DNA from: a virus
Lineage: Duplodnaviria > Caudoviricetes
DNA length: 64,000 nucleotides
IMG/VR virus record: IMGVR_UViG_3300017691_000006
Coordinates: 12,751-76,750 of that record
Reading direction: 5' to 3' (one strand)
Shown here: positions 2,031 to 61,985 of the stretch, piece after piece
Layout: each line of letters begins with the position of its first letter
Numbering within the stretch: the first letter of the stretch is position 1
Made by a program: the position numbers and the translations under genes
Notes under the pieces: generated by a model
The model's input: only the letters and a program-made list of their open reading frames with translations
What the model was told of the DNA's origin: nothing
Database searches by the model: none

Positions 2031-2043
2031 GTCTCAGGCCTCC

Positions 2044-3231: not shown

Positions 3232-3246
3232 TCAGTTGTCCTTGTG

Positions 3247-3939: not shown

Positions 3940-4051
3940 TGTTGGTATCTTCCTCTGAGCACAGCTCAATTGCGGCAGGGGCCACAGACCTCTACCAAAT
4001 GGAATGTCGGTGTGGGCCGCTGGGAGTACAACTCCTTTACAGCCCATACCT

Positions 4052-4071
4052 GGGTTAATTCAACGGGTTGG
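4052..4071 (-). promoter_or_regulatory. class A conserved motif, copy 1 (CCAACCCGTTGAATTAACCC)
   Basis: 20-bp motif repeated 6 times with one variable base; here immediately after the MuF-RNAP stop and upstream of scaffold/capsid. Confidence 0.8.
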
Positions 4072-4073
4072 CG

Positions 4074-8744: not shown

Positions 8745-8771
8745 CGTTCTAGTCGTCCTTGGTTGGGAGCC

Positions 8772-9059: not shown

Positions 9060-9496
9060 GCCTGCTTGTCCTCCTTAGCTGGCGAATGGAAACCGATCAC
9101 CCCCTTCCCGTTGTCCGCAGACTTCTTGACTACCGAATAACCGAGCTCGCGCATGGCGTGCTCAACGATGTGGTCCAGCAAGTAGGCCTCAGCCTCCATA
9201 CTCGGGTTCTGCTCGCCGATGGTGCGCCAGATGAGCTGCACCGCGTGCATGCTCTCGTGAGCGATCACCGCCGCCGGGCAGACGTCCTCGTCCTCGTGCA
9301 TGTCCTCCGGGAAGGCCAGGAGCACGTAGGTGCCCTCCGGCGTCCCGTAGAAGACGGTGGTGGCGTAGCTGTCCTCGAGAGGGTTAGCCACGGGTAGGTC
9401 GTTCTTCCGCTGGAAGCGCTTGATGGCGGCGGGCGAGTCGGTCACGCCGACCAGCACCGGATACATCAGCCCCTTCAGCCAGGCTATCTTGTTCAT
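9056..9496 (-). CDS. small HExxH putative zinc metallopeptidase-like protein
   Basis: VIAHESMHAV followed by EAEAY; paralogous to 60528..60881. Confidence 0.55.
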   Translation of the reverse strand: MNKIAWLKGLMYPVLVGVTDSPAAIKRFQRKNDLPVANPLEDSYATTVFYGTPEGTYVLLAFPEDMHEDEDVCPAAVIAHESMHAVQLIWRTIGEQNPSMEAEAYLLDHIVEHAMRELGYSVVKKSADNGKGVIGFHSPAKEDKQA

Positions 9497-11184: not shown

Positions 11185-11187
11185 GGG

Positions 11188-11385
11188 TTAGCCCCGGAGG
11201 CGCGCGTTGAACTCTGCGCGCGTGCCCTCGAAGGTCTCGCGGGTCGAGTAGTTGGTACCCACGATCGTGTCGGGGTCGTCCTCGTGCTCGACCAGCGACC
11301 AGTCGCTCGGGCAGCGGCCCTTGAACTGCTCCACCGGCGTCTGCTCGGGGGTAACGGTCTCGGTCTTGTCGAAGATGTCGGCCAT
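11188..11385 (-). CDS. hypothetical protein
   Basis: 65 aa, RBS AAGGA upstream, typical codon bias. Confidence 0.6.
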   Translation of the reverse strand: MADIFDKTETVTPEQTPVEQFKGRCPSDWSLVEHEDDPDTIVGTNYSTRETFEGTRAEFNARLRG

Positions 11386-11400
11386 GGTATTCTTTCCTTG

Positions 11401-12639
11401 TTATGCGAAGAGTATCGTACCGACCAGCAGCGAGGCCGTGGCGGGTAGGGCGGTGTTGTCCAGGTCGGCGGGCAGGGTCGTCACGGCGTAGGTGATGCCC
11501 GTGCTGAACGCGAACCCGTACTGGTCGAAGATGTCCGCGAAGTTCACGAACCCACCGGCGGGGATGGGCAGCTGGAACAGCGGGACCGTGGTACCGAGGG
11601 TGACGCCGCCCGTTGAGGTCGCGTTGAAGAACTTCATGTACAGCGGGGCGGTGTGCGTGTTGTGGACTATGCCTCCCACGATGCGCCCGATGCTGGACTT
11701 GATGTTGTTCAGGTTCGTCGTGCTCGCGACCGTGTTGACCTTGTGGTACTGGCTGCCGTTGCTGCCCGTGGTCACGCGCGCGTCGGTGACGTTGACGTTC
11801 GTGTTGCCGCCGACCACGTTGACGGGAACGCTGGCGGCGCCGGAGGAGTTGCCTCGGCCACCGCCCACCTCGACCTGCAGCTCCTGCACGTCCATCGACA
11901 GGATGCGCTGTACGGTCAGCTGCGCGTTGGTGGTCGCCGCCGTGTTGCGCACCCAGATGAAGGGAGCGTAGCGCTTGGCGTGCGAGGGCACCATGCTGTT
12001 GATGCGGCCCACGTTGGCCGACCGTGCACCGCCGCTGTTCGCGGGGTTGTGCGAGTAGACCACGTCCTCGGGCCTGACCTCGATGGCCGACTCGATGTTG
12101 CCGTTCGAGCCGTTCTGACCTCCGAAGTTGACCTGGGTGCTGGTGGGGTTGCCTCCCGACAGCGTCTCCAGGATCGTGTTCGTGGTCGACGTGCCGTTGA
12201 GCAGCATCGCGCAGAAGTTGTTCGGGAAGTTCGTCAGGTTCGGGTTGGCGACCATGTTGCCCGCCGCGTCCACCTCCAGGTAGCCCATGCGGACCTCCTG
12301 GTTGGCGTTCCTCGCAGACAGCGACCAGGTGATGGTCAGGTTCTGCGGGATGGTGCAGATGTGCCTGCCGACCAGCAGCATCTCGTTGCCCGAGGCTGTG
12401 CCGGTGTTGATCAGCAGGGCGGAGCCGGTCTCCTGGATGGTGACGGAGCCCACGTTGCGGACCACGTTCCAGTTCTCGGCGATGGCAGCCAGGGTGGCCG
12501 CTCCGGCCGCGAGGTTGGGGCCCGAGAAGCCGTCGCTCCACTTGGTCATGGTCGTGCCGATCTGCGTGACCCGGCTCAGGTCGGGCAGCTGGACGGTGGA
12601 GTCGAGAGCCAGCCCGCCCAGGATGTTAACTAGGCTCAT
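11401..12639 (-). CDS. putative virion fibre/decoration protein, beta-rich
   Basis: 412 aa rich in G/N/T/S/V and poor in charged residues; in the late operon. Confidence 0.5.
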   Translation of the reverse strand: MSLVNILGGLALDSTVQLPDLSRVTQIGTTMTKWSDGFSGPNLAAGAATLAAIAENWNVVRNVGSVTIQETGSALLINTGTASGNEMLLVGRHICTIPQNLTITWSLSARNANQEVRMGYLEVDAAGNMVANPNLTNFPNNFCAMLLNGTSTTNTILETLSGGNPTSTQVNFGGQNGSNGNIESAIEVRPEDVVYSHNPANSGGARSANVGRINSMVPSHAKRYAPFIWVRNTAATTNAQLTVQRILSMDVQELQVEVGGGRGNSSGAASVPVNVVGGNTNVNVTDARVTTGSNGSQYHKVNTVASTTNLNNIKSSIGRIVGGIVHNTHTAPLYMKFFNATSTGGVTLGTTVPLFQLPIPAGGFVNFADIFDQYGFAFSTGITYAVTTLPADLDNTALPATASLLVGTILFA

Positions 12640-16698: not shown

Positions 16699-16718
16699 GG
16701 GTTAATTTAACGGGTTGG
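16699..16718 (-). promoter_or_regulatory. class A conserved motif, copy 2
   Basis: GGGTTAATTTAACGGGTTGG on plus strand, at the head of the terminase/late operon. Confidence 0.8.
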
Positions 16719-20417: not shown

Positions 20418-20804
20418 TCAGTCGAGCGCGGCGAGCTGCAGCTTGAGCTCCTCGACCGAGGCGCCGGAGAGCTTCTCGTCCTCCTTGTTCTCGATCAAGC
20501 GCATGATCTTGTCGCGCTTCTCCTTGTTCTCGCGGCGCTCGGTGGCCTTCTTGGCCTCCTCCTGCTTGACCTCGATGATGCGCTTGACGACCTCGAGCCG
20601 GGTCTTGAGGTCCGGGTCGGCGGTCGCCGTCTGCACGAGCGACTCGGTCTCGGTCGCCTTGATGTCGGCCAGCAGCACGGTGCCGATGGCGTTGAGGCTC
20701 GTGTCGCCGAGGATCGGCAGCGACCACAGCTGCTCGACGGTGAGCTGGCCCTTGTTGGAGTCGAAGCGGAGCTTCTTGCGGGTGACGGTCTCGAATGCGT
20801 TCAT
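20418..20804 (-). CDS. conserved phage hypothetical protein, coiled-coil C-terminus
   Basis: R.KLRF.S.KG.LTVEQLW.LP motif; RBS AAGGGA. Confidence 0.65.
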   Translation of the reverse strand: MNAFETVTRKKLRFDSNKGQLTVEQLWSLPILGDTSLNAIGTVLLADIKATETESLVQTATADPDLKTRLEVVKRIIEVKQEEAKKATERRENKEKRDKIMRLIENKEDEKLSGASVEELKLQLAALD

Positions 20805-20829: not shown

Positions 20830-22821
20830 TTACATCTTCACCCGGTACGGGCGACCGTCGGCGACCACCTCGAAGGTGGCCGAGTTCGTGGAGGAGAAGC
20901 CGACGCCCGCCAGCTGGTCCTCCGTGGGCTCGCACTTGGTCTTGGAGCCCAGCACCTCCAGCACCTTGCGGTGCTCCTGCAGCTCCGGCCGCAGCGCCTC
21001 GTTGAAGAAGCCGCGGACGGGGTCGGGCGACCTGCAGTCCTTGAGCATCAGGAACAGGTGCTTGTTGCCCTGCTGCCGCGACTGCTCCCAGTAGTTGGGC
21101 GAGAGCAGCACGGTCTCGACGGGCACGCGCTCGCCGAGCTTGACGCCCCACTTCTCGCCGCCTCGCATGGAGCCCTCGCGGACGAGCTTGGACTTCTCGA
21201 CGTTGACGACCTCGCCGTCGCGCACGGTGACCAGCAGGTAGGTGTTCTTGCCGCGCACCTCCTGGTCGAAGTGGAACTGGCGCACGACGCCCTTGTTCTC
21301 CAGCTCCAGCGTGAAGCCGAAGTCCTTGCCCTCGCGCTGCTTGTACTGGTTCACCTGCACCTGGTACGTGCCGTCCCGCAGGTTGAAGCGGGTGTAGGAC
21401 ACGTTCTCGACGGCGTCCCGCACCGGTTGCGACACGTTCATGTCGACGTCGAGCTTGCCGGCCTTGTTGCCGTGGTAGACGACGTGGCCGGTGGGCTCCG
21501 TGACCCAGATGTCGAGGTCGTCCAGGTTGAACCAAGCCAGCGAGATGCGGAGGGCGGCGTTCGTGACGTTACCGCCCTTAGCCTCCACCCGGTTCCTGAT
21601 GCTGGCGTCCGCGACGTCGCCGTCGTAGGACCATGCGAAGTCGTTGCCCCACGAGAAGAGCCCGCCCGAGGCCTCGTCCTGCGCCGCCGTCAGGGCGACG
21701 AAGTTGGTCGAGTTCTCGGGACGGACCACGGCCTCTAGCTTGCGGGTGCCCGGCAGCACCTCGCTCAGGAACGTCTGCACCGGGATGTCGGTGAACGCCT
21801 GGGGCAGCTTGTCGCCCTTGCCGACCGAGGTCCCCAGGATGTCCGACAGGCTCTCGGCGCCCTTCATGCGGTCGCGGACGTCGTTGTCCACGAACAGCAC
21901 GTCGTTCACGTTGAGGTCGTCGGGCCGCGCCATGCGGCGACGGATCGCCCCGCCCAGGCCGAGCTCCTCCAGCTTCTTGGAGGCGTTCTCGACCATCTGC
22001 GCCGAGATCGGGGCGCTGGTACGGCGGTAGTTGTCGGGAGCCACCTTGCTCTCGAACGAGGCCACGGCCCTCTCCAGCAGAACGTCGTTCGACAGGTCGA
22101 CGACGAGGGTGCCGATCGCCGTGTTGCGGAAGCGGGTCGCGGGCTGGTGCAGGTTGCCCCAGATGAAGTCCTCGCTGCGGCCCGACTCGGACCAGAGGTT
22201 CTTCAGCTTGAGGAAGTCTGCAACCGCCTTGCGATGCTCCTCACCGCGGTAGAGCTGCTTGCCGTCGATGAGCTCGAGCACGGTCTCCAGCGAGCCCGTG
22301 AGCAGCTCCTTGAGGCCGCGCTGCAGGACCTGGTAGGTCGAGTTGAGCTCGCCCGCCTTCTTGTCCGGCGTGAGCGAGAAGTGACGGTCCTCGACGCGGC
22401 CGTGGAAGTGGTGGAACTTCCGGTCGCTCTTGTCGTCGAAGTTGCTCTCGGTGCCGAACGAGCGCTCCTTGCTACGGAACACGCCGACGATCGGCGCGGC
22501 CATCAGCAGGTCGTGCAGCTTCTTGGCCACGACCTCGTACGCGTAGTAGCTGACCATGGCGTCGCCGAGGTCCCAGCAGGTCGTGCGGTTGCCCGCGCTG
22601 TCGACGGCCACCAGCGAGCCGAGGCGTCGCAGGTACTGCTTGCAGCAGTTGCAGTCGTGCTCGGTGCGCTCACGGAACAGCGGGTTGGTGCCGTCCGGGA
22701 ACGCGGCGAGGTAGTGGTCGAACACGTCGACGTCGAGGCGCACGACGAACAGCTCGCTCGTCTTGGCCATGTCGTTGTACTTGGTGTGGACGCGGTCTGC
22801 GAATGACTTGAAGTCGGACAT
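20830..22821 (-). CDS. large conserved phage protein with HDCNCC motif and YfaP/DUF2135-like domain
   Basis: 663 aa; TEHDCNCCKQY near N-terminus; ISLAWFNLDDLDIWVTEP...LDVDMN resembles YfaP-type domains. Confidence 0.6.
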   Translation of the reverse strand: MSDFKSFADRVHTKYNDMAKTSELFVVRLDVDVFDHYLAAFPDGTNPLFRERTEHDCNCCKQYLRRLGSLVAVDSAGNRTTCWDLGDAMVSYYAYEVVAKKLHDLLMAAPIVGVFRSKERSFGTESNFDDKSDRKFHHFHGRVEDRHFSLTPDKKAGELNSTYQVLQRGLKELLTGSLETVLELIDGKQLYRGEEHRKAVADFLKLKNLWSESGRSEDFIWGNLHQPATRFRNTAIGTLVVDLSNDVLLERAVASFESKVAPDNYRRTSAPISAQMVENASKKLEELGLGGAIRRRMARPDDLNVNDVLFVDNDVRDRMKGAESLSDILGTSVGKGDKLPQAFTDIPVQTFLSEVLPGTRKLEAVVRPENSTNFVALTAAQDEASGGLFSWGNDFAWSYDGDVADASIRNRVEAKGGNVTNAALRISLAWFNLDDLDIWVTEPTGHVVYHGNKAGKLDVDMNVSQPVRDAVENVSYTRFNLRDGTYQVQVNQYKQREGKDFGFTLELENKGVVRQFHFDQEVRGKNTYLLVTVRDGEVVNVEKSKLVREGSMRGGEKWGVKLGERVPVETVLLSPNYWEQSRQQGNKHLFLMLKDCRSPDPVRGFFNEALRPELQEHRKVLEVLGSKTKCEPTEDQLAGVGFSSTNSATFEVVADGRPYRVKM

Positions 22822-25764: not shown

Positions 25765-26219
25765 CCCACGCAGACGTCGTTGACGCGCGGGGCGTAGCGG
25801 TGTTGGATCCACTCGTACTCGAAGCCCTGCGCCATCGCGAAGCCCACGGCGAGGCACCTGAACACCTCCCTGTCCCAGGTGGACGTGGGGCTCAGGCCGA
25901 GGTGGGCCGCGTCGTGCAGCACCTGCAGTCGGCTGAGGAACTCCTCCGACACGCCCTGCTTGGCGAGGCGCTCCGCCACGTCGGGGTTGTTCGCGAAGTA
26001 GGTGCCCACGCTGCCGTACAGCGTGCTGTCGTTGGCCAGCTCCGCCTCGGTGAGTAGCCAACCCACGGCGCAGTGCACGTTGGGCTCCTTGTCCAGCTTG
26101 TAGGCGCAGAGCATGTCCACGTGGTTGTAGCAGCGCTTGCCCTGCTGGATGATGCCGTAGACGGAGACCTTGAAGGCGTCCTCCTCGGACGCTACTTCCA
26201 GTTGTACGTTCTCTCGCAC
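25761..26219 (-). CDS. tandem paralog 3 of 3 (CAVGWLL family)
   Basis: Shares C.Y...CAVGWLLTE.E...FL.RLQ.LHD...FR..A.GFA.A.GF with the two upstream genes. Confidence 0.7.
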   Translation of the reverse strand: MRENVQLEVASEEDAFKVSVYGIIQQGKRCYNHVDMLCAYKLDKEPNVHCAVGWLLTEAELANDSTLYGSVGTYFANNPDVAERLAKQGVSEEFLSRLQVLHDAAHLGLSPTSTWDREVFRCLAVGFAMAQGFEYEWIQHRYAPRVNDVCVG

Positions 26220-26671
26220 TTGCGAAGCTCCTTGATTGGTGCTAGGTGTTCGTTGTCGATGAAGGGCCAGGAGCCCTCTGTGGTGAGCCAGGTGGTGGAG
26301 AAACCCATGGCTTGGGCGAAGCCGACGGCCTTCATTCGGAAGAAGTCGAAGTCGAACTCTAAGCCCTTGCTGTAGTCGGTACGGTCGTGAAGCTGCTGCA
26401 TACGGCTGAGGAACCGCATCCCGTCCTCACGAGACATGCCGGTTTGCTCCAGCAGCCTCTCACCCACCGCCGGGAACCTGGTGAACAGCTGTTCGACATC
26501 CATAGACTCTAGGCCTACGGTGGCCTTCGCCTCCTCTTCGGTCAGCAGCCAGCCGACCGCGCAGCGCTTGCCCTCCGGGTCCAGGTAGACGCAGGACGGG
26601 CCGTAGAAGGCCCTGCCGTTCTGCTTGAGGATGTTGTAGACCGCCTTGCGGAACAGGTTCTCGGCGCTCAT
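26192..26671 (-). CDS. tandem paralog 2 of 3 (MSAENLFRKAVYNILKQN...)
   Basis: ATG at 26671 overlaps upstream stop; same motifs. Confidence 0.7.
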   Translation of the reverse strand: MSAENLFRKAVYNILKQNGRAFYGPSCVYLDPEGKRCAVGWLLTEEEAKATVGLESMDVEQLFTRFPAVGERLLEQTGMSREDGMRFLSRMQQLHDRTDYSKGLEFDFDFFRMKAVGFAQAMGFSTTWLTTEGSWPFIDNEHLAPIKELRKCERTYNWK

Positions 26672-27114
26672 GCCTCGAATACCTTGTTCAGGGGCGGGTG
26701 GTCCTCGCCGTCGAAGTAAACGGAGATACCGGTCTCCAGCAGCCAGCCGGCTCCGAAGCCCATGGCCTGGGAGAAACCGTAGGCGCGCTGGCGGAAGGCG
26801 TCGCGGTCGAACGCCGTCATGTCGTCGTGAAGCGCCTGCAAACGTGACAAGAACTCCCTGTCGCTGCCCTTGTACTCCTCGTTCATGTCGACCTGCAGCC
26901 GATCGGCGACGGCGGGGAGGTGTTGCAGCAGCTTGACCGCTGTCATCGACGGCATGGTCTGGGTGACCAGCGCCTCCTCCTCCGTCAGCAGCCAGCCGAC
27001 CGCGCACCGGCGCTCGCCGTCCTTGTACACGCAGGAGCCCGTCTTGCCGACCGCGCGGGCGTTCTGCTTGAGGATGTTGTAGACGGCCTTGTTGAATACG
27101 AACTGTCTGTTCAT
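26668..27114 (-). CDS. tandem paralog 1 of 3 (MNRQFVFNKAVYNILKQN...)
   Basis: Same motifs; RBS AGGA. Confidence 0.7.
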   Translation of the reverse strand: MNRQFVFNKAVYNILKQNARAVGKTGSCVYKDGERRCAVGWLLTEEEALVTQTMPSMTAVKLLQHLPAVADRLQVDMNEEYKGSDREFLSRLQALHDDMTAFDRDAFRQRAYGFSQAMGFGAGWLLETGISVYFDGEDHPPLNKVFEA

Positions 27115-27297
27115 GGTGTTGTTCCTACTTGAGGGCGTTTGAGACGACGGCGTTGACGTACTGGCTCTCGCTGCTGCTGGCGACGAAGCGGGCGTTGGCC
27201 CAGCTCCGTAGGTCCTGCAGAGCCTGCTGCTGTCGCGCGTTGGTGGCGATGAGCTCGACGACGTCGACCTCGACCTCCTCGCTGGCGATCTTGACGA

Positions 27298-27687
27298 TCA
27301 CTGGGCGTTCTCGAGGATGTAGTCGCCGATCTCCTCGAAGCTCTTCTGCTCGTCGTCGTTCATGCGGACGAAAATCATCATCGAGAAGCCCATGTCCGTG
27401 AGCAGCTGGTCCACAGCGTTTGGGTCGGAAGCTTGCTCGCGGTGCGTGCGGTGCTGCACGACCACCGGCGCGCCGAGGTGTGACACAGCCAGCACGTCCA
27501 GGCAGCAGTGCGCGGTCGCCTTACCGTCCTCGGTGCGGTGACTGTTGTTCCAGTTGCCGCGATTCTGCTCGAACTTACCGCTCTTGAGGTCGGCAGCCCA
27601 CCTCTCCGCGATCTTGCGGCTCTCGGTCTTCGGCACGCAGCTGTCGATACGGAACCAAGCTGCGATCTTCTTGAGGATGTTCTTCAT
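27298..27687 (-). CDS. hypothetical protein, paralog of 29924..30223
   Basis: L.SG.F.Q...CCL.VL...MND....F.EI.DY.; probable ATG at 27687. Confidence 0.6.
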   Translation of the reverse strand: MKNILKKIAAWFRIDSCVPKTESRKIAERWAADLKSGKFEQNRGNWNNSHRTEDGKATAHCCLDVLAVSHLGAPVVVQHRTHREQASDPNAVDQLLTDMGFSMMIFVRMNDDEQKSFEEIGDYILENAQ

Positions 27688-27745
27688 GGGGTCTCGCTTG
27701 ATGAAGGGTTGCCCTCCCACGGGATTGCGAGAGGGCGTGTGGTCG

Positions 27746-27955
27746 TCAGGCCGGGGCCATCGTCTGTTGGGTGTCGCGGAACTTCTCGACAGCGTCGCTG
27801 GCGAAGCCCATCGGGTCGGGCATGTCCAGCTCGCCGGCGGTCAGCAGGGCGTTGTTGAACACCTGGCTCTCGATCTCCTTGATCTTGTTGTTGTTGAAGC
27901 GCCGGAACTCGTTGATGCCCCGGTCGAACGTCGCGCGGTCGTTGAAGTCGAACAT
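27746..27955 (-). CDS. hypothetical protein
   Basis: 69 aa, typical codon bias. Confidence 0.5.
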   Translation of the reverse strand: MFDFNDRATFDRGINEFRRFNNNKIKEIESQVFNNALLTAGELDMPDPMGFASDAVEKFRDTQQTMAPA

Positions 27956-27956
27956 G

Positions 27957-28550
27957 TCAGCGGCGACCCGACGAGAATGACGACGAGCGGAAGCTGCTCG
28001 ACGACGAGTACGAGGGGCGGCTGTACGACGAGGACGAGCGGTACGAGCTGGTGTAGCTCGGGCGGCTGTAGGTGGTCCGGGTCGTCGTGGTCGTGCGCGA
28101 GTAGGAGTTCGGCGTCACGACGCGCGAGGTGCTGCCGTCGCTGTTGAACCGCACCGTCGACGCCTTGTTGACGTAGGGGCTGCGGTAGGTGCTCGGGTTG
28201 GCGATGCGGGTCACCGAGCGGTACGAGGCCGGCGAGCGGTGGATGATCGTGGTCTTCTGCGACACGATCGTGCGGTAGTTCTGGCGGTAGTAGTCGTGGC
28301 GCACCGGCGGGCGGTAGCCGCTGTAGTTCGGCGTCGGCTGCAGGTAGGTCTGTCCCGAGCCCATGCGGCCGATCATGTAGCCGGCCATGCCGTAGAGCAG
28401 GTACTGGCTGACGTCGCCGCCCGCGTTGCTGTACTGGCGGCACTCCGCCGGGTTGGTCGCCGCTGCGCACTGGTCACCGCCGCCCATCTGCGGGCCGCAG
28501 GCGGTCAGGGTCAGGACGGAGGCGACGGCTGCGATGATGATCTTCTTCAT
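27957..28550 (-). CDS. lipoprotein with Ser/Arg/Tyr/Thr-rich low-complexity C-terminus
   Basis: MKKIIIAAVASVLTLTAC signal with lipobox; tail ends SYSRPSYSSSSSFRSSSFSSGRR. Confidence 0.7.
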   Translation of the reverse strand: MKKIIIAAVASVLTLTACGPQMGGGDQCAAATNPAECRQYSNAGGDVSQYLLYGMAGYMIGRMGSGQTYLQPTPNYSGYRPPVRHDYYRQNYRTIVSQKTTIIHRSPASYRSVTRIANPSTYRSPYVNKASTVRFNSDGSTSRVVTPNSYSRTTTTTRTTYSRPSYTSSYRSSSSYSRPSYSSSSSFRSSSFSSGRR

Positions 28551-28577
28551 GTGATGGTCTTCCTTGTAGCTTGAGGT

Positions 28578-29012
28578 TCAGAGGGCGATGATGCGCGGGT
28601 TGCAGACCCAGGGCTCAGCGCCGGGTCGATCGCACAGGTTCTGCAGTTGCAGCAGGATGCTCTCGGCGGTCTCGAGGTCGTACGCCTCGACGCCGTCGAT
28701 GTCGAAGTTCTTCTCGCGGGTGACGTCGTTCATCAGCGAGTAGTTGCACTCCATCGAGAAGCTGTAGGAGCAGGCCGCAGCGTATACCGTCTTCCCGTTT
28801 TCGGACTGGTCCGTGAAATTGGAGGCGACATCGGCGGCGACCAGGTACTTGTTGCTCTCGGAGTAGGGGATGTAGTCGGCCGCCGTGATGACGATCTCCT
28901 CGTGCTCCGAGACGACCTCGACGGGGTGGCGGCGAACGTACAGCCAGACGCCGACGAAGCCGAGAAACAGGAGCGCGGTGGCGAAGAGCATGATCAGAGT
29001 CTTTGCGTGCAT
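28578..29012 (-). CDS. membrane-anchored hypothetical protein
   Basis: N-terminal TM helix, four Cys. Confidence 0.55.
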   Translation of the reverse strand: MHAKTLIMLFATALLFLGFVGVWLYVRRHPVEVVSEHEEIVITAADYIPYSESNKYLVAADVASNFTDQSENGKTVYAAACSYSFSMECNYSLMNDVTREKNFDIDGVEAYDLETAESILLQLQNLCDRPGAEPWVCNPRIIAL

Positions 29013-29016
29013 GGTG

Positions 29017-29400
29017 TCAGTAGTCCTTGCGTGCGAGTTGGGTGTGGGTGTAGGAGCGGACGGCCCGCAGCACGAGTATCTCCTTGCCCGGCATGAGCTT
29101 GGCGATACGCTGTGCCTCGGCGTCGGCCTTGTCGAGGTTCGGCTGGCGAACCTTCGGCTTCTCGCCGTCGGGGTTGAACACGAAGTACGTGCCCTGGCCT
29201 CCGCGCGTCAGCACCTTGCGGGTAAACTCGTTGTTGACGTCGTAGAGCGTGGCGGAGAGGGTCCCGCCTCCGCCGTGTAGCGGCCAGCGCAGCTCGTGGT
29301 TGGGCGCGATCATCGGGTTCTTACGCAGGTCGTTGACCAGCTCGCCCAACAGGTCGTCGCCCACGAACAGCTTGTGGGTGATACTGAGGTTATGGTCCAT
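29017..29400 (-). CDS. hypothetical protein
   Basis: 127 aa, typical codon bias. Confidence 0.55.
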   Translation of the reverse strand: MDHNLSITHKLFVGDDLLGELVNDLRKNPMIAPNHELRWPLHGGGGTLSATLYDVNNEFTRKVLTRGGQGTYFVFNPDGEKPKVRQPNLDKADAEAQRIAKLMPGKEILVLRAVRSYTHTQLARKDY

Positions 29401-29921
29401 CAGAGCACCCAGTAGGCGACCGACTGCAGCACGAAGCCGGCCAGCAGGGTGTAGCGCACGATGTTGTGGTGCCGCAAGCTAACGTAGCGGCGGTGCCAGC
29501 CCTCGTGGTCGGTGACGCTGTCGAACTCGATCTCCGCCGAGTGCCGGTCGGCGTGGGCGACATGGACGGTCACGCCGTCGTGCAGCACGTGGTCGGAGCG
29601 GCGCTCGTAGGCGTCCCGGAAGTAGTCGCGCTCCTTGATGATCACCTCGGTCGCGGCTGCGGCGACCTTGATGCCCTGCGCCGCCTCGTCCAGGCGGAGC
29701 GTGGTCTGCGCGATGGCAGCGCCCATACGGTCGCGGTGCAGCTGGTAGGCCAGCGAGTTGATGCTGATGGACCGACCCATCTGGTCGATGAGCATGTAGG
29801 ACGGCACGCCGGTCTGCACCAGCTTGTCGTTGCTGTAGACGTTGTAGTGGCCCTTGTCGGCCTCCTCGATGCGCACGGTGATGTCGCCTGCGATCAGGTA
29901 GCGGGTGGTCTCACGGGTCAT
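29400..29921 (-). CDS. hypothetical protein with C-terminal hydrophobic anchor
   Basis: Probable ATG at 29921; ORF track extends to 30005. Confidence 0.5.
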   Translation of the reverse strand: MTRETTRYLIAGDITVRIEEADKGHYNVYSNDKLVQTGVPSYMLIDQMGRSISINSLAYQLHRDRMGAAIAQTTLRLDEAAQGIKVAAAATEVIIKERDYFRDAYERRSDHVLHDGVTVHVAHADRHSAEIEFDSVTDHEGWHRRYVSLRHHNIVRYTLLAGFVLQSVAYWVL

Positions 29922-29923
29922 GT

Positions 29924-30223
29924 TCAGAACTTTTCCTCTACGTAGTCCGCGATCTGGGCGAACGTGAGCTCGTCCCGATCGTTCAGGTGTATGATAGTCA
30001 TGCATTGTTCGAGGGTAAGGGATGTTTTCCGCAGCACGTCAGTCCAGTGAACCGGCATCATGCTGGCGCCCACCTGTACGAGAGGTTCGTTCAGGGTTAG
30101 CAGCAGTACGCCCAGCGCGCAGGCGCAGCTGCGGTTCTCGGGGTCGACGTAGATGCGTCGTATCTGCTTGTAGCGCCCCGAGCGAAGGTTGGTGAGGAAT
30201 GCGGCCTTCACGTGCGGTGGCAT
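29924..30223 (-). CDS. hypothetical protein, paralog of 27298..27687
   Basis: LRSGRYKQ...CALGVL...LND...TFAQIADYVE; RBS GAGGAG. Confidence 0.6.
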   Translation of the reverse strand: MPPHVKAAFLTNLRSGRYKQIRRIYVDPENRSCACALGVLLLTLNEPLVQVGASMMPVHWTDVLRKTSLTLEQCMTIIHLNDRDELTFAQIADYVEEKF

Positions 30224-30260
30224 GGTTTCTCCTCTCGGCCGTAAAAAGTTTAGGTGGGAG

Positions 30261-30287
30261 GGTCAGTTTAGCGTCGTGACCAGGACG
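30261..30287 (-). ncRNA. H-type pseudoknot element, copy 1
   Basis: RNA CGUC-CUGGUCAC-GACG-CUAAAC-UGACC; loop GGUCA pairs with UGACC. Confidence 0.7.
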
Positions 30288-30293
30288 TGTTCG

Positions 30294-30881
30294 TTACGCG
30301 GTGTGGTGCCGCTTGCTCGCGGCCTTCCTCGCGGCCTTGGCCTTGCGGCGGCGGTCCCGGCGGTTGCCGGTGAAGACCTGCTCCGGCTCCTCGCCGAAGG
30401 CGGCGGTGGTCGGCTCGTCCATGTCGGCGAACTCGACCTCGCGGTCGTCCTCGTCGGGCTCCAGCGAGACCATCTGGAGACGGAGCTCCTCCACCAGCTC
30501 GGGGCTGATGTTCATGCCGATCTGCTTGAGCTTGGTGTCGATGATCGCTCGCGCAACCTCGTGGCTGAGCGTCGGGTCCTTGAGCTGGTCAGCAGCGGAC
30601 GCGATGTGGAGGTCTGCGGGGACGAGACCAGCGGCCTCCATCTGCGCGCTGAACGGCTCCAGCTCACCCCTGTCGACCAGGAAGAGCTCAGCGCCCTCCG
30701 GCAGTGCGAGCGCCTCCTCGGAGGTCTCCACCTCGACCAGGCCGTCCTCGTTGTGCGTGCAGAGAGCGTACCACTTGTTCGAGAGACCCTCCTCGACCAG
30801 CTCCACGGTCGCTGCGGGCTTGCCCTTGGCGATCAGGAACAGGTTGGCGACGAGCGCGCTGTCGTAGTTCTTCATGTGCAT
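30294..30881 (-). CDS. acidic hypothetical protein with basic C-terminal tail
   Basis: About 195 aa; ends NRRDRRRKAKAARKAASKRHHTA. Confidence 0.6.
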   Translation of the reverse strand: MHMKNYDSALVANLFLIAKGKPAATVELVEEGLSNKWYALCTHNEDGLVEVETSEEALALPEGAELFLVDRGELEPFSAQMEAAGLVPADLHIASAADQLKDPTLSHEVARAIIDTKLKQIGMNISPELVEELRLQMVSLEPDEDDREVEFADMDEPTTAAFGEEPEQVFTGNRRDRRRKAKAARKAASKRHHTA

Positions 30882-30910
30882 TCTCACTTGAGGTTGTTAG
30901 TGGTGGGTCA

Positions 30911-30938
30911 AGCCAGTTTAGCGTCGTGGCTCAGGACG
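30911..30938 (-). ncRNA. H-type pseudoknot element, copy 2
   Basis: RNA CGUC-CUGAGCCAC-GACG-CUAAAC-UGGCU; AGCCA pairs with UGGCU. Confidence 0.7.
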
Positions 30939-31009
30939 TCACAGCCGTTTGCGTGCGGCATTTTACTCTGGTATCGTTTGGGGTTGTTGAACTTACTTCA
31001 TGATAACCT

Positions 31010-31045
31010 CCTAGGTGTTTCATATAAGATGCTCAGTTCTGCGCG
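31010..31045 (-). promoter_or_regulatory. class B conserved motif, divergent copy
   Basis: Plus strand CCTAGGTGTTTCATATAAGAT-10 nt-GCGCG, same spacing as the three closer copies. Confidence 0.6.
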
Positions 31046-31326
31046 AGCCACTCCTCGACGTGCTGGACCGACACGAGGCCGATCTTGCTGCCCATCAGCA
31101 CCCCGTTCTTGAACAGGTACAGGGTGGGCACGGCCCGGAGCTCCAGCTCCTTGGCCACCAGCGCGTTCTCGGTGACGTCGCAGACGAGCACGTCCTCGCG
31201 GTCGGACAGGCGTTCACCCATCTCGACCGCCAGGTTGGACCAGTCGGTGCGGCAAAGCAGCATCACCCTCCCCGCGCGCTGCTTCACCTTCGCCTCGAAG
31301 TTGGCGTCCGTTACGGCCTCAGGCAC
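31033..31326 (-). CDS. thioredoxin-fold protein lacking CxxC
   Basis: AVTDANFEAKV start, VCDVTEN..VAKELELRAVPTLYLFKNG cis-Pro motif; WCxxC replaced by CRTDWSN. Confidence 0.65.
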   Translation of the reverse strand: MPEAVTDANFEAKVKQRAGRVMLLCRTDWSNLAVEMGERLSDREDVLVCDVTENALVAKELELRAVPTLYLFKNGVLMGSKIGLVSVQHVEEWLAQN

Positions 31327-37438: not shown

Positions 37439-37458
37439 GGGTTAATTTAACGGGTTGG
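37439..37458 (-). promoter_or_regulatory. class A conserved motif, copy 3
   Basis: GGGTTAATTTAACGGGTTGG. Confidence 0.8.
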
Positions 37459-37485: not shown

Positions 37486-37505
37486 GGGTTAATTTAACGG
37501 GTTGG
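37486..37505 (-). promoter_or_regulatory. class A conserved motif, copy 4
   Basis: GGGTTAATTTAACGGGTTGG, 47 bp from copy 3. Confidence 0.8.
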
Positions 37506-47099: not shown

Positions 47100-47932
47100 G
47101 CCAGTATCTCCTGCGCGATGGGCCAATCTTCGAGGTCGAACCAGTCGTTCTCGTGGCGCATGATGTGGATCAACTTGCCGTTCGCCAGCAGCTGGTTGTG
47201 CCACTGATCCTGGTAGTGCCGTATGTACATGTCGACCACGGCGTACTGGTACTCTTCTACGGTCGTGCAAGCGGCCAGCGCCTTCTGCGCCTTGACGGGA
47301 CCGATGCCGACGATGCCAGGGATGTTGTCGATCTGGTCGCCCTGGATCAGCTGCTCGTAGTACAGCCGGAGCGCCGCCGCCTCGTCGACGTCGGTGAACT
47401 CCTCCTTCTTGATGTTGTAGTGCTTGCCGGGGATACACAGCAGGTCCTTGTCGATGGACGCCACCACGTACTCCTGGCCGCACGCCCTCGCCTCGTTCGC
47501 CCAGATGCGGATGAGGTCGTCTGCCTCGCAGCCGACTGAGGGGATGGCCAAGCCACCTTTCACGGCGAGCTGCCTGATGGTCGGAACCAGCTGGGACATC
47601 TCGCTCGGCTTGTAGGCTCGGCTCTTCTGCTGCTTGTACATGGGGTACATCTTGGCCCGGAAGTTGCCCGGACCCTGCACCGCCATGACGTACTCGTCGC
47701 AGAAACAGGCATCCACGAGGTCCGGCAGCTTCCTCTCGAAGCGCTGCCAGGTCTGCATCAGATACTCTGCGTTTTCCTCTTGGGTGTAGGTCTTGACGCG
47801 GGGTGTCGCCTTGCCCGTTTCCGGGTCGATGTCGAACACCCTCTGTCCATGTGCATCGACGTTGTACTCCCAGCGGGGCTCGAACGAGCGGTACGCCAGG
47901 ACGTCACCGTCGATAATGCACAGTCTGCTCAC
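47087..47932 (-). CDS. 5'-3' exonuclease (T7 gp6/FEN-like)
   Basis: IIDGDVLAY, NFR..YP.YK, EADDL, SIDKDL, GDQIDNIPGIVGIGPVKA; probable GTG at 47932. Confidence 0.9.
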   Translation of the reverse strand: MSRLCIIDGDVLAYRSFEPRWEYNVDAHGQRVFDIDPETGKATPRVKTYTQEENAEYLMQTWQRFERKLPDLVDACFCDEYVMAVQGPGNFRAKMYPMYKQQKSRAYKPSEMSQLVPTIRQLAVKGGLAIPSVGCEADDLIRIWANEARACGQEYVVASIDKDLLCIPGKHYNIKKEEFTDVDEAAALRLYYEQLIQGDQIDNIPGIVGIGPVKAQKALAACTTVEEYQYAVVDMYIRHYQDQWHNQLLANGKLIHIMRHENDWFDLEDWPIAQEILACST

Positions 47933-48027
47933 GCGGGGCTGAGGTCGTCGTCGTCGAATGCCCGCACGATGGCCCATATCACGCCGATGGCCAATGCCAT
48001 CAGCAGCAGCTGTTGTTCAGGCGTCAT
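47929..48027 (-). CDS. 32-aa membrane micropeptide (MTPEQQLLLMALAIG...)
   Basis: Read manually; TM helix with acidic tail; stop overlaps exonuclease start. Confidence 0.45.
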   Translation of the reverse strand: MTPEQQLLLMALAIGVIWAIVRAFDDDDLSPA

Positions 48028-48269
48028 AGGATTACCCTTATCTCTCTGAGGCCGAGGCGCTGGGCGAGCTCCTGCACCACGGCGATGTCTTCCATTTGGT
48101 GGTAGTCGTTGATGTAGAACACCCGCGCGCCGGGACGGTTCACACCCCGCATCTGTCTGCCGGAGTAGATGTGCCGTGCGTTGCGCGGGTCCATGTTGAA
48201 CACCTGCAGGAACGATTGGTAGAGGTGGCGGTTGCGAGCCACCACGTAGAACAGCTCAGTGGATGTCAT
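48024..48269 (-). CDS. hypothetical protein
   Basis: Probable ATG at 48269. Confidence 0.5.
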   Translation of the reverse strand: MTSTELFYVVARNRHLYQSFLQVFNMDPRNARHIYSGRQMRGVNRPGARVFYINDYHQMEDIAVVQELAQRLGLREIRVIL

Positions 48270-51585: not shown

Positions 51586-51605
51586 GGGTTAATTCAACGG
51601 GTTGG
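51586..51605 (-). promoter_or_regulatory. class A conserved motif, copy 5
   Basis: GGGTTAATTCAACGGGTTGG at the head of the SSB/replication operon. Confidence 0.8.
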
Positions 51606-52278: not shown

Positions 52279-54519
52279 TTAGACGAAACAGTAGTCGGAG
52301 TCCTTCACCAGCGTGATGTCGAGCGTGCCGAACTCGACCTGGCTGATGTCGCCCATGATGTCTTCCATGATGTTGCCGAGCGGGTCGGCGTCGTACAGCT
52401 CCACGAACGTGTCGCGGATCAGCTGGAAGAGCTCGGGCATGTCGGCCAGCAGGCAGCCGAACGAGTCGTGGATGGTAGTGATCGGGAAGTCTGCCTTGGC
52501 CACCGTGATGGTCAGGTGGGCGGCGTCGAGCGAGTGGATGGCGTTCGGCGAGGCGCCGGACACCTGCTTGCCCTTCGACGGCACCTGGTTCTCGATGAAG
52601 CAGATGGCGATCTGGTACGTGTTCGCGTAGTAGCCGGTGGACAGACGCTCGCCGACCGGCGGGCCGTACTGCACCCAGATCTTGCGCGACACGCCCTCGG
52701 TGTAGTACTGGACGACGGGGAAGTCGGTGACCGGCACGGTCCACGACAGGAACTCCCCGGCCTCCTCCGCCTCCCTGCCCGCGTTCTCGAACACGGACAG
52801 CAGCTGCATCGGGCGGCGGAGGCTGACCCGGCAGTCGTCGAACACGACGCGGCCTAGGTAAGAGCCCCACTTGTGCTCCATGAACAGGAGCTTGTCGATG
52901 CCGTGCTTCTTGGAGTCGTCGATCTGCTGCTGGCCCAGGCCGTACGGGGTGCCGCCGTAGGGCAGGGTCATGACGTTGCGCTTGACGATCTTGCGCCGCT
53001 CCTTGGCGTCCGTGACGGACAGCCAGTAGACGGGACTGGACAGGTCGCCGATGCGCTTGTGCATGTCCTTGTAGGCCCGGACCTCGTCGATGAGCATGCT
53101 GCGCTGCACGCTCTTCGGCTCGAGGTTCTGGATGGTCTTCTTGTACTGCACCAGCGTGTCGATGTAGGACACGCAGGCCTTGTAGTCCTCCGGCAAGTAC
53201 GCGGCGACCTCCAGCTGCAGCCGCTCCCACACGTGGTCGGCGACGTACTTGTAGAGGTCACCGGGCAGCTCGCTCGGCACCAGGTTGACGTGCGGCGCCG
53301 TCTCCTCGTCCCTGGTGAGCGCCGAGAGGTGCTGGCTGCCGTTGTTGGAGCCGTCGATGTACACCTCCAGCGAGGACTCGTAGTCGTAGTTCTCGTAGTC
53401 GCCGCCCTGCTGGGTCTGCCAGATACGGAGCTTCATCAGCTCGGTGCAGGCGGCAAGGAACTGCCAGGGCTTGTCGGCCTTCATCCAGCCCTGGTTCACG
53501 CGTGGCTGCTCGGCGTACGAGAGCAGGATGTCCTCGTGCTCCTTACACCACGCGTACCGATCCTTCAGAGGGATCTTGTCGGTCTTTGCCTTGTCTGGTC
53601 GACCAGCATCTCCTGCCCAATTCGAAGCAATGGAGACAAGGAGCCAGAAGAAACCAGGCTCGCCAATCCGCTTGCGATCTGCTCGGAGGAGAAGTCCCCT
53701 TGCCAGATCACTACCTTGCTCGTGGAGGTAGGCGGTGGTGGGGTACTTGCGCCCACGGAAGTCGAAGTAATAGAGATGGTAAAATCGTCGGCCAAGGAAC
53801 CGGCCAGCGATATCTCCAATCGCCTTCGCTTCTCTGAGCTTGGTGGCTCGGGCGTCTTTGCTAGACTGCTCCCAGATATCGCTGAAAGCATCTGTCTTGT
53901 TGCCCAGCGCCCAACGGTACGTTTGATAGATGTCTTGATTGACATTCCAACCAACCTCCTGTGCTTTGTTGAGACAAGCGAACAGCATCGGGTGCGTCTC
54001 GAGCGTGATCTTGTCGAGGACGTCCCTGCTGCCCGTCTTAACCATCGGCATCCCCGTGGCGTGCCTGGAGGTGGTCCAGGGCTCGTACGGGGTCACCGAC
54101 GGCAGCTTCTCGTTGGTCGAGGAGGTCACGGAGGACCACAGACCGACGATGCCGTCGTCGTCCACGAGTCGGACGATGTAGGCGGCGTGGCTCTTGTTGC
54201 CCTGACCGAGTATCACCTCGATCATCTGCAGCTTCTGGAAGGACCACAGCAGGAACGCGCCGGTCTTGGCGGCCAGGCTGGAGTCCCGCTTCTGCTTGAG
54301 CTTGGAGCGCACCGAGTGGCCCAGAGCAGCCACCATCTCCGAGAAGTAGATGGCGGTGCTGCCGAAGCCCTTCTTGACACGCGTGTACATGTACACGACC
54401 GAGATCACGGTGTCAAGGTATTCTTCCACTTGGAACTGCTTGAGGTACTTGAGCGGGTTGCGCGGCGAGACCTCAACCTCGAGCCGCTCCTCAATGCTCT
54501 TCTTCAGCTCAGCGCGCAT
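52279..54519 (-). CDS. T7-like single-subunit DNA-dependent RNA polymerase (746 aa)
   Basis: YYFDFRGRKY, KPWQFLA, IDGSNNGSQH (A), RKIVKRNVMTLPYG (B), PNAIHSLDAAHL and TIHDSF (C). Confidence 0.96.
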   Translation of the reverse strand: MRAELKKSIEERLEVEVSPRNPLKYLKQFQVEEYLDTVISVVYMYTRVKKGFGSTAIYFSEMVAALGHSVRSKLKQKRDSSLAAKTGAFLLWSFQKLQMIEVILGQGNKSHAAYIVRLVDDDGIVGLWSSVTSSTNEKLPSVTPYEPWTTSRHATGMPMVKTGSRDVLDKITLETHPMLFACLNKAQEVGWNVNQDIYQTYRWALGNKTDAFSDIWEQSSKDARATKLREAKAIGDIAGRFLGRRFYHLYYFDFRGRKYPTTAYLHEQGSDLARGLLLRADRKRIGEPGFFWLLVSIASNWAGDAGRPDKAKTDKIPLKDRYAWCKEHEDILLSYAEQPRVNQGWMKADKPWQFLAACTELMKLRIWQTQQGGDYENYDYESSLEVYIDGSNNGSQHLSALTRDEETAPHVNLVPSELPGDLYKYVADHVWERLQLEVAAYLPEDYKACVSYIDTLVQYKKTIQNLEPKSVQRSMLIDEVRAYKDMHKRIGDLSSPVYWLSVTDAKERRKIVKRNVMTLPYGGTPYGLGQQQIDDSKKHGIDKLLFMEHKWGSYLGRVVFDDCRVSLRRPMQLLSVFENAGREAEEAGEFLSWTVPVTDFPVVQYYTEGVSRKIWVQYGPPVGERLSTGYYANTYQIAICFIENQVPSKGKQVSGASPNAIHSLDAAHLTITVAKADFPITTIHDSFGCLLADMPELFQLIRDTFVELYDADPLGNIMEDIMGDISQVEFGTLDITLVKDSDYCFV
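53565..53945 (-). CDS. candidate overprinted 126-aa ORF inside the RNAP gene (+1 frame)
   Basis: ATG 9 nt after AGGAGG; stop-free for 126 codons; coincides with a sharp loss of GC3 bias in the RNAP frame. Confidence 0.55.
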   Translation of the reverse strand: MSIKTSIKRTVGRWATRQMLSAISGSSLAKTPEPPSSEKRRRLEISLAGSLADDFTISITSTSVGASTPPPPTSTSKVVIWQGDFSSEQIASGLASLVSSGSLSPLLRIGQEMLVDQTRQRPTRSL

Positions 54520-55556: not shown

Positions 55557-55593
55557 GGTTGTACCTCTTAGCCGTAAAAAAGTTAGGTGTGGA

Positions 55594-55620
55594 GGCCAGT
55601 TTAACGTCGTAGCCAGGACG
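55594..55620 (-). ncRNA. H-type pseudoknot element, copy 4
   Basis: RNA CGUC-CUGGCUAC-GACG-UUAAAC-UGGCC. Confidence 0.7.
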
Positions 55621-55689
55621 TGCTCGAAGCCGAAAAATATTTTAGCGGAGAACGCCCACGAGGGGCGGCAGTAAAAATATTAGGTAGTA

Positions 55690-55716
55690 GGGCAGTTTTA
55701 CGACTTGCCCAGGTCG
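55690..55716 (-). ncRNA. H-type pseudoknot element, copy 5
   Basis: RNA CGAC-CUGGGCAA-GUCG-UAAAAC-UGCCC; both stems covary; contains the stop codon of the upstream gene. Confidence 0.7.
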
Positions 55717-56124: not shown

Positions 56125-56162
56125 CCTAGGTGGATATCATATAAGATACCCGCTTTTGCGCG
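56125..56162 (-). promoter_or_regulatory. class B conserved motif
   Basis: Plus strand CCTAGGTGGATATCATATAAGATACCCGCTTTTGCGCG. Confidence 0.75.
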
Positions 56163-56313: not shown

Positions 56314-56351
56314 CCTAGGGTGATATCATATAAGATACCCCTATTTGCGCG
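56314..56351 (-). promoter_or_regulatory. class B conserved motif
   Basis: Plus strand CCTAGGGTGATATCATATAAGATACCCCTATTTGCGCG. Confidence 0.75.
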
Positions 56352-58739: not shown

Positions 58740-58774
58740 GTCTTTGCTCTCGCCGAAAAGTAGTTAGGTGTGGA

Positions 58775-58801
58775 GGCCAGTTTAACGTCGTGGCCAGGAC
58801 G
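58775..58801 (-). ncRNA. H-type pseudoknot element, copy 6
   Basis: RNA CGUC-CUGGCCAC-GACG-UUAAAC-UGGCC. Confidence 0.7.
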
Positions 58802-60890: not shown

Positions 60891-60921
60891 AAAATAAAGG
60901 GAGACCTCCGAAGAGATCTCC
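60891..60921 (-). terminator. intrinsic terminator after endolysin
   Basis: GGAGATCTC-TTCG-GAGGTCTCC-CTTTATTTT. Confidence 0.8.
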
Positions 60922-60957
60922 TAGGTGGATATCATATAAGATACCCGTTTTTGCGCG
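60920..60957 (-). promoter_or_regulatory. class B conserved motif at the start of the early region
   Basis: Plus strand CCTAGGTGGATATCATATAAGATACCCGTTTTTGCGCG. Confidence 0.75.
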
Positions 60958-61965: not shown

Positions 61966-61985
61966 GGGTTAATTTAACGGGTTGG
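61966..61985 (-). promoter_or_regulatory. class A conserved motif, copy 6
   Basis: GGGTTAATTTAACGGGTTGG at the head of the lysis cassette. Confidence 0.8.

Follow-up and report, generated by a model that had tools for sequence, protein, structure and literature searches.

The sequence studied here, called the window, is the 64,000-nucleotide (nt) stretch running from base 12751 to base 76750 of a 76,750-bp IMG/VR virus record (IMGVR_UViG_3300017691_000006) that is rated 97% complete; positions are those of the window unless another sequence is named. Its GC content is about 63%, and all credible genes lie on the minus strand. Two of these genes encode RNA polymerases (RNAPs) related to that of phage T7. 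One, RNAP2, is a compact single-subunit enzyme of 746 amino acids (aa) and is the last large gene of a block of small early genes. The other, MuF-RNAP, is a protein of 1556 aa that joins a minor head protein of the MuF/SPP1-gp7 type to a divergent T7-type RNAP module, and its gene lies among those for the virus head. Two short motifs, class A and class B, recur along the window, and their positions relative to the polymerase genes suggest a relay in which MuF-RNAP would give rise to RNAP2 and RNAP2 to the products of the remaining modules. The features are as follows, listed in the direction of transcription.

63985-62921, minus strand: tail-tip gene
61966-61985, minus strand: class A site, followed by a 55-aa and a 179-aa gene (putative holin and endolysin), a putative lysis cassette at the junction of late and early genes
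60932-60957, minus strand: class B copy 1, opening the early block directly after the putative endolysin gene; core GTATCTTATATGA, conserved in relatives
60900-60921, minus strand: terminator-like hairpin, a 9-bp stem and then a run of T, directly downstream of class B copy 1
Ahead of RNAP2, minus strand: the early block, about 6 kb of small genes with no function assigned
56326-56351, minus strand: class B copy 2, 1.8 kb upstream of RNAP2
56137-56162, minus strand: class B copy 3, 1.6 kb upstream of RNAP2; no class A site intervenes
54519-52279, minus strand: RNAP2, with an ATG start and an open reading frame (ORF), followed by a 188-aa gene
51586-51605, minus strand: class A site, 0.7 kb downstream of the RNAP2 stop; heads the replication module (DNA polymerase A, exonuclease, primase-helicase, class II ribonucleotide reductase, ligase)
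37486-37505 and 37439-37458, minus strand: tandem pair of class A sites, 47 nt apart, preceding a 199-aa gene and the long accessory region
31020-31045, minus strand: class B copy 4, in the accessory block; core GCATCTTATATGA
16699-16718, minus strand: class A site; heads the packaging/head block of large terminase, portal (9493-11184) and MuF-RNAP
8744-4074, minus strand: MuF-RNAP, between portal and scaffold
4052-4071, minus strand: class A site, 2 nt past the stop codon of MuF-RNAP; heads scaffold (3247-4047), major capsid and tail genes, the last running into the part of the record that precedes the window

The polymerase encoded by the early block

RNAP2 matches the Pfam family RNA_pol (PF00940) over residues 283-723 with an E-value of 9e-65 and a score of 219.7 bits (the cut-off is 22), and a profile of the RNAP2 family finds T7 RNAP in the PDB at an E-value of 4.5e-68. 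Identity to known T7-like enzymes is 26-30%. In a pairwise HMMER alignment to 1aro, T7 residues D537, K631, Y639, H784 and D812 are each paired with an identical residue of RNAP2, and in an alignment of 23 sequences of the RNAP2 family, residues D389, K510, K513, Y521, G522, H662, H684 and D685 are invariant. The catalytic residues are unchanged in homologues as low as 46% identity. An AlphaFold2 model built on the 23 family members (predicted local distance difference test score, pLDDT, 89.5; predicted template modelling score, pTM, 0.85) has as its top Foldseek matches the complex of T7 RNAP with its promoter (1cez; TMq 0.74, spanning the whole length of the model) and the early initiation complex (3e2e; 0.72). 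The model places a long beta-hairpin, residues 607-647 with strands 607-617 and 634-647, at the position of the T7 specificity loop. RNAP2 is 137 aa shorter than T7 RNAP (883 aa) because its N-terminal region is reduced by about 165 aa, so that residue 235 of RNAP2 aligns with residue 402 of T7 RNAP. By these comparisons RNAP2 is apparently an active T7-type RNAP, separate from MuF-RNAP.

Within the RNAP2 gene, the GC fraction at third codon positions falls from 0.9-1.0 to 0.5-0.67 over about 450 nt (~53560-54010, codons ~170-320), in the most conserved part of the gene, and a 129-codon ORF is open in another frame at 53565-53954, overlapping the dip. Import of the patch from a sampled relative of low GC content was considered and rejected: nucleotide identity over the patch is only 0.52-0.69, and none of the relatives sampled is unusually similar. 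In a number of relatives (L036, L040-L044, L046, L049, L052, L054 and L055), the match to RNAP2 spans 2.7-3.3 kb rather than 2.2 kb. The extra length suggests insertions, for instance of introns, inteins or homing genes.

The polymerase fused to a minor head protein

The N-terminal part of MuF-RNAP is readily recognized, with a match to Pfam Phage_Mu_F at residues 145-250 (E-value 3.7e-15); the match to RNA_pol is weak, at 31 bits. When residues 430-1556 were scanned against 1.84 billion representative proteins, relatives were found in only 157 representative clusters, with full-length matches of 1264-2073 aa. Among 23 diverse full-length homologues (21-60% identity), all 23 have MuF and 19 reach RNA_pol, and the aspartates of motifs A and C and the K/K/Y/G residues of motif B are invariant. 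The family profile retrieves from the PDB T7 RNAP (1.8e-23), mitochondrial RNAPs and, weakly, RNAPII of phage N4 (6dt7). T7 and mitochondrial RNAPs are likewise the top folds for an AlphaFold2 model of residues 600-1556 (pLDDT 82.5), which contains a 120-residue insertion predicted at low confidence. The mini-vRNAP of N4 was absent from the PDB profile search at E-values up to 1, and it was not among the listed Foldseek matches of the model (ranks to 50). The conserved fusion to MuF and the position of the gene between portal and scaffold make MuF-RNAP a candidate for a virion-delivered polymerase.

The closest MuF-RNAP, at 54.5% identity, is that of EBPR siphovirus 1 (JF412302.1; L004). Since this record is partial and lacks the early region, it is uninformative as to the presence of RNAP2. 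In the same record, a gene for an HNH endonuclease divides the fused polymerase gene into gp47 and gp49 (25771-31144 of that record).

Relationship of the two polymerases

An hhalign comparison of the RNAP2 and MuF-RNAP families gave a probability of 98.8 and an E-value of 1.2e-16 over 604 aligned columns, at 18% identity. Because the alignment runs from residue 635 to about residue 1407 of MuF-RNAP against residues 62-726 of RNAP2, MuF-RNAP evidently holds a whole T7-type enzyme and not the palm alone. In a tree of polymerase cores, the MuF-RNAPs form one clade, with a support of 100 in the Shimodaira-Hasegawa approximate likelihood ratio test (SH-aLRT), about 3.7 substitutions per site from RNAP2 and the ordinary T7-like RNAPs. 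RNAP2 groups (SH-aLRT 93) with an enzyme of DSS3_VP1, a cultured roseophage of the Naomviridae that carries relatives of both polymerases. The two polymerases of DSS3_VP1 branch outside the close relatives of the window in either group of the tree, and the pair must therefore be old; a recent duplication as its origin is ruled out by the tree and by the 18% identity of the profiles. Judging by these comparisons, both polymerase genes are intact and under purifying selection.

The original prediction, made from the letters of the window and their translations, had described a T7-like RNAP of 746 aa with intact motifs at the close of the early region, shorter than T7 RNAP, separate from the MuF-fused polymerase and clearly divergent from it. 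All of this is borne out: the ORF is open, the Pfam match is strong (E-value 9e-65) and the T7 catalytic residues are kept; the difference between 746 and 883 aa comes from the N-terminal reduction; the two enzymes have their own ORFs, at 52279-54519 and 4074-8744; and the phylogeny, which the prediction had proposed as a check, puts them in different clades, their identity in the profile comparison being ~18%. The sequences by which it had told the enzymes apart, DGSNNG and TLPYG in RNAP2 as against DASSSG and TFYG in MuF-RNAP, were both found in the translations.

Two classes of motif

Class A (CCAACCCGTTRAATTAACCC; core CCCGTTAAATTAACCC) occurs six times in the window and class B, an AT-rich element (CGCGCARAA..GYATCTTATATGA), four times. 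All copies of both are on the minus strand, and shuffled sequences yielded none of either. Class A motifs had been predicted to head the replication, late, capsid and lysis operons, and the six sites do stand at the heads of modules; it is the term lysis that is weak, since it depends on a match of the 179-aa gene to CHAP with an E-value of 4.8e-4, under the Pfam cut-off. Class B motifs had been placed upstream of RNAP2 and in one accessory block, which agrees with the three copies upstream and the one accessory copy.

Across the family the consensus of class A is AaCCCGTTAAATTAACCCT and that of class B is tGCGgaAAAnnngGTATCTTATATGA, in which a 13-mer is nearly invariant. The sequence of class A varies inside single genomes; class B is maintained in genomes whose GC content ranges over 32-63%. 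Both motifs have stem-loops starting at their 3' edges, as expected of the 5' ends of transcripts: 57% of class A sites fold at <= -5 kcal/mol (17-21% of controls), and 29% of class B sites do so (11-21% of controls). Class A has CCCGT(T)AA in common with the 3' end of the characterized promoter of Syn5 RNAP (PMC3950665), and this may be regarded as a weak lead. The class B copies of the window contain an inverted repeat, but an N4-style hairpin promoter found no support, as the repeat is not retained in relatives.

A further repeat, of 50 nt, is found on the minus strand just before ribosome-binding sites, at 58763-58790, 55667-55716, 55582-55609 and 30249-30276. Its copies differ by compensatory changes in two potential stems (CGTC/GACG vs CGAC/GTCG in one; GCCA/TGGC vs GTCA/TGAC vs GGCA/TGCC in the other). 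It was dropped as a promoter motif, its sequence being lineage-specific and not conserved in relatives.

Conservation of the layout in uncultured relatives

IMG/VR contains 72 loci with a relative of RNAP2, of which 57 are 43-72% identical to it and the rest are ordinary T7-like genes at 26-32%. There are at least 170 loci with a relative of MuF-RNAP, and at least 7 contigs of 68-82 kb carry relatives of both. Layout was counted over the 57 close RNAP2 loci, with the flanks fetched for each; their GC content, 32-53%, makes the window a high-GC outlier. In these loci, class B cores are on the coding strand in 62 of 63 instances and class A cores in 55 of 56. The coding-strand class B matches lie, all but one, 0.7-3.8 kb upstream of RNAP2. 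Class A is found downstream of RNAP2, a position that is syntenic in almost every relative; the distance is 0.3-1.9 kb for the majority of loci and reaches 3.7 kb. Some loci have an additional class A copy 2.5-3.5 kb upstream of RNAP2, and in the most divergent loci no class A was recognizable inside the fetched flank.

Three complete relatives each have five class A sites on the coding strand (one of them has a sixth, with two mismatches, on the opposite strand) and three or four class B sites, on the coding strand only. In all three, no more than about 10 nt separate a class A site from the MuF-RNAP stop, which matches the site at 4052 in the window. Class B copies occur in the accessory blocks of complete relatives as well. 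In two of these blocks (G001, 63340/63410; G002, 54262/54332), a class A site is followed about 70 nt on by a class B site, and the accessory genes behind such a pair could be expressed in both phases.

Two distant phages with MuF-RNAP (L159 and L160, 24-25% identity) retain the order terminase, portal, MuF-RNAP, scaffold, capsid. Their contigs repeat a different intergenic motif (CGACCCATTACCCAAT and relatives), and this suggests that promoters changed in step with the polymerases. Such distant MuF-RNAP homologues were also searched for phages having one enzyme and lacking the other, but the contigs are fragments of just 22-24 kb with the other motif, and they settled nothing.

The cultured roseophage DSS3_VP1

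The RNAP2 and MuF-RNAP of DSS3_VP1 are about 35% and 31% identical to those of the window, and 25 of its ORFs match the window genome in the same order at 26-60% identity. The GenBank label of its fused gene is only 'minor head protein-like'. The order of elements in DSS3_VP1 is late genes, a hairpin followed by six T residues, two B-like sites (GCATCTATAATGA, at ~35800 and ~36260), early genes, RNAP2 and three A-like sites. There are 13 A-like sites in all (..GCGTTAAAGAGGGG; also written ..CGTTAAAGAGGGG), every one on the plus strand, and the three that follow RNAP2 lie just past it. The hairpin immediately precedes the first B-like site, and from there to RNAP2 no A-like site is found. Since RNAP2 lies behind class B, and in DSS3_VP1 behind class B alone, class B is most likely read by an enzyme other than RNAP2. 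In DSS3_VP1, at least, RNAP2 would probably depend on another polymerase acting at class B.

Naomviridae have genes for the synthesis of DNA containing deoxyuridine (dU-DNA), namely those for the dCTP deaminase Dcd and the dTMP phosphatase Dtm (PMC12697855). The dCTP deaminase ORF of DSS3_VP1 (47637-48089) had no tblastn match in the window genome at an E-value of 1e-4, a search that divergent or non-homologous enzymes could escape, and the ORF neighbouring it had a match of only 25 aa. As far as can be judged from this comparison, nothing in the window indicates dU-DNA.

Both polymerases are present in every complete relative examined and in DSS3_VP1. The same layout, with class B preceding RNAP2 and class A both directly following it and heading the middle and late modules, is found in more than 50 uncultured relatives, in the three complete genomes and in DSS3_VP1. 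Both classes of motif are conserved, as the layout is, and they are strand-specific and non-random.

A proposed two-polymerase relay and its alternatives

The best reading of this layout, to which a probability of about 0.6 may be given, is that injected MuF-RNAP reads class B, that RNAP2 is made in consequence, and that RNAP2 reads class A. MuF-RNAP would be made late, carried into the capsid by its MuF part (a portal-associated minor head protein) and brought into the next cell together with the DNA. There it would start transcription at the four class B sites (core GTATCTTATATGA), which would serve the small early genes and the operon ending in RNAP2. RNAP2, once made, would recognize the six class A sites (core CCCGTTAAATTAACCC) and transcribe the modules for replication, packaging/head, capsid/tail and lysis as well as the accessory one, and with them the gene for the MuF-RNAP of the following round. 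It would thus be the middle and late transcriptase in a self-contained relay.

The original prediction had proposed the same cascade of two polymerases, and it fits the conserved layout. With two conserved asymmetric motifs and two conserved polymerases, a one-to-one assignment of enzyme to motif is the simplest. Class A stands ahead of every middle and late module, which would suit a compact T7-type enzyme. Gene 1 of T7 is directly followed by its own promoters, and the RNAP2 gene, with class A coming at once after it, appears to mirror that arrangement. From the whole we infer that the motifs act as promoters, that the enzymes are paired with them as described, that MuF-RNAP enters the virion, and that the programme can do without host RNAP.

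Several observations weigh against the relay. A class A site lies upstream of RNAP2 as well, both in the window (61966) and in many relatives, so position alone does not exclude that an enzyme reading class A makes RNAP2. All that stands against such read-through is the layout of DSS3_VP1 and the hairpin at 60900-60921, which, to speculate, may stop transcription arriving from the lysis cassette. Some class B sites in AT-rich relatives read TTGCGG, 16 nt, TATGAT and could serve host RNAP. There is also a sigma-70-like site on the coding strand at 60353-60326 (ATGGCA, 16 nt, TATAAT; 10 of 12 positions), the only one in the early block and possibly a minor entry point for the host enzyme. Covariation between motif variants and the divergence of the polymerases was sought, and none was found that links either motif to either enzyme. 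The paper describing DSS3_VP1 makes no mention of RNA polymerase or virion proteins.

The sites resembling sigma-70 promoters are what one might expect if the programme were of the T7 or Xp10 style, with host RNAP (possibly aided by a phage factor on the 13-mer) reading class B to make RNAP2, RNAP2 then reading class A, and MuF-RNAP either doing another job, such as priming replication or assisting DNA entry, or reading sites that were not found. There is precedent, for known siphoviruses that encode a T7-like RNAP (the Xp10 group with phiL7, for example) use host RNAP early, and several AT-rich relatives do have class B in a usable sigma-70 arrangement. As judged from the alignment, however, the conservation of class B does not fit a sigma-70 promoter. 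Its near-invariant positions (GCG and the 13-mer) coincide with the would-be spacer and parts of the -35 element; the would-be -7 base is more often A than T across the family; and in the window the -35 position reads GCGCGC, without TTG. A would-be spacer (GTATCTTA) that is itself nearly invariant would better fit direct readout by a dedicated protein. Moreover, early transcription by the host would leave a strictly conserved, catalytically intact polymerase in the capsid module without a promoter class. A host-driven early phase is, for these reasons, considered unlikely.

It is improbable that the assignment is the reverse, with injected MuF-RNAP reading class A and RNAP2 reading class B, even though read-through from the class A site upstream of the early block (61966, and its counterparts in many relatives) could reach RNAP2 and another class A site directly follows the MuF-RNAP gene. 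The hairpin and T residues of DSS3_VP1 part the late operon from the B-like sites before RNAP2, with no A-like site between, and the window has its own terminator-like hairpin at 60900-60921. The reversal would also leave RNAP2 with only three or four early promoters, its own included, would leave replication and every late gene to the few enzyme molecules injected, and would put the MuF-RNAP gene behind its own promoter. The stem-loops that follow both motifs would be expected at RNA processing sites too, and the motifs might instead be sites of RNA processing or stability, or binding sites for a regulator, the true promoters having gone unrecognized. This is very improbable for elements of 20-26 nt that are asymmetric, intergenic, confined to the coding strand, sited where modules begin and almost wholly conserved in sequence, which is the signature of promoters for single-subunit RNAPs; the loss in relatives of the palindrome seen in the window's class B speaks against a dimeric operator. 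Least credible is the notion that one polymerase is inactive or dispensable, a decaying duplicate. MuF-RNAP does barely reach Pfam RNA_pol, and its model has the insertion of 120 residues predicted at low confidence, yet both genes are uninterrupted in the window, their catalytic residues are invariant down to 21% identity (MuF-RNAP) and 46% identity (RNAP2), and both enzymes have been retained in every complete relative examined and in DSS3_VP1.

Other features of the genome

The tail region contains a single ORF of 3246 aa (positions 1817-11557 of the genome, minus strand, outside the window) with local similarity to the tape-measure protein of DSS3_VP1. In the accessory region, a protein of 663 aa (20830-22821, minus strand) belongs to no Pfam family and shares 44% identity with what is annotated in DSS3_VP1 as a 'conserved uncharacterised protein'. 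Its neighbour of 128 aa (20418-20804, minus strand) is likewise common to DSS3_VP1, and the two form a conserved pair with no function assigned. A megablast search with 20 kb of the window against phage records gave no match.

Comparison with known systems

The closest known system is that of N4 (Schitoviridae), in which transcription passes from a virion RNAP (gp50) to RNAPII (gp15/gp16) and then to host RNAP. The likeness would lie in a virion-carried polymerase that starts early transcription, followed by a phage RNAP of the T7 family encoded early, with the gene for the virion enzyme a late one. The differences are considerable. The virion RNAP of N4 has about 3500 aa and no MuF fusion, whereas MuF-RNAP has 1556 aa and no match to mini-vRNAP. 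RNAPII of N4 is a heterodimer of gp15 and gp16, whereas RNAP2 is one uninterrupted chain of 746 aa. The late genes of N4 are left to host RNAP; in the window, the replication and late modules have one and the same class A motif at their heads, which argues against such a role for the host enzyme. Finally, N4 is a podovirus, whereas the window genome has tape-measure and tail genes. So far as gene content and layout indicate, the system of the window does not have the defining features of the N4 programme.

Some 25 core genes of the window recur, with their order unchanged (terminase, portal, MuF-RNAP, scaffold, capsid, tail, early genes, RNAP2, replication), in the dU-DNA siphoviruses DSS3_VP1 and DSS3_PM1 (Naomviridae, Noahvirus), which have B-like (GCATCTATAATGA) and A-like (..GCGTTAAAGAGGGG) sites in matching places. 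They differ in that identity is at the level of a family or lower and in that no homologue of the dCTP deaminase was found in the window genome.

With T7 RNAP and the enzymes of the Autographiviridae, Xp10 and phiL7, RNAP2 has in common its catalytic residues and, as modelled, its fold and a hairpin at the position of the specificity loop, and its gene, too, ends the early genes and is followed by its presumed promoters. RNAP2 is nonetheless 137 aa shorter and forms its own group with the DSS3_VP1 enzyme (SH-aLRT 93), and the window departs from the T7/Xp10 scheme in having a second phage polymerase and no evident early promoters of the sigma-70 type apart from the 10/12 site at 60353-60326. 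The jumbo phages phiKZ and AR9/PBS2 run a host-independent programme in which one polymerase is packaged and another is synthesized once infection has begun, but theirs are multisubunit two-barrel enzymes, unrelated to the T7 family, in genomes of more than 200 kb. AR9/PBS2 and the Naomviridae both have dU-DNA.

A literature search found no paper on fusions of MuF with RNAP or on two single-subunit RNAPs in phages outside the N4-like group, and in the literature on DSS3_VP1 and the Naomviridae it found no discussion of either polymerase. The original prediction had called two monomeric T7-type RNAPs in one such genome unusual. That must be amended: a large uncultured clade and the cultured Naomviridae carry both enzymes as a rule, and the pairing appears to be undescribed in the searchable literature rather than rare.

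Implications

Relays in which a packaged polymerase is succeeded by a second one are known from N4 and the jumbo phages. If the relay proposed here is real, it would be a third and structurally simpler design, found in siphovirus-type genomes of 62-82 kb, in which fusion to MuF would serve as the route of entry to the capsid and two monomeric enzymes of the T7 family would act at distinct promoter candidates, both short and highly conserved. One may go further, tentatively and at slightly less than even odds, and suppose that a large clade of long-tailed phages, including the dU-DNA Naomviridae, runs a programme free of host RNAP. An RNAP delivered by MuF would work on an early promoter and a minimal RNAP of 746 aa on a second promoter for all middle and late genes, the two enzymes having separated anciently within the T7 family. 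Such a programme would be an independent and simpler counterpart of the N4 relay, and it would bring two polymerase-promoter systems that are new and mutually orthogonal.

The clade is widespread in metagenomes (at least 170 IMG/VR loci and 157 representative protein clusters), and the proposal is directly testable in a cultured system, DSS3_VP1 on Ruegeria pomeroyi. If true, it would provide two new orthogonal polymerase-promoter pairs for use in vitro and in synthetic biology, one of them with an unusually small enzyme, and it may help to explain how phages with dU-DNA are transcribed.

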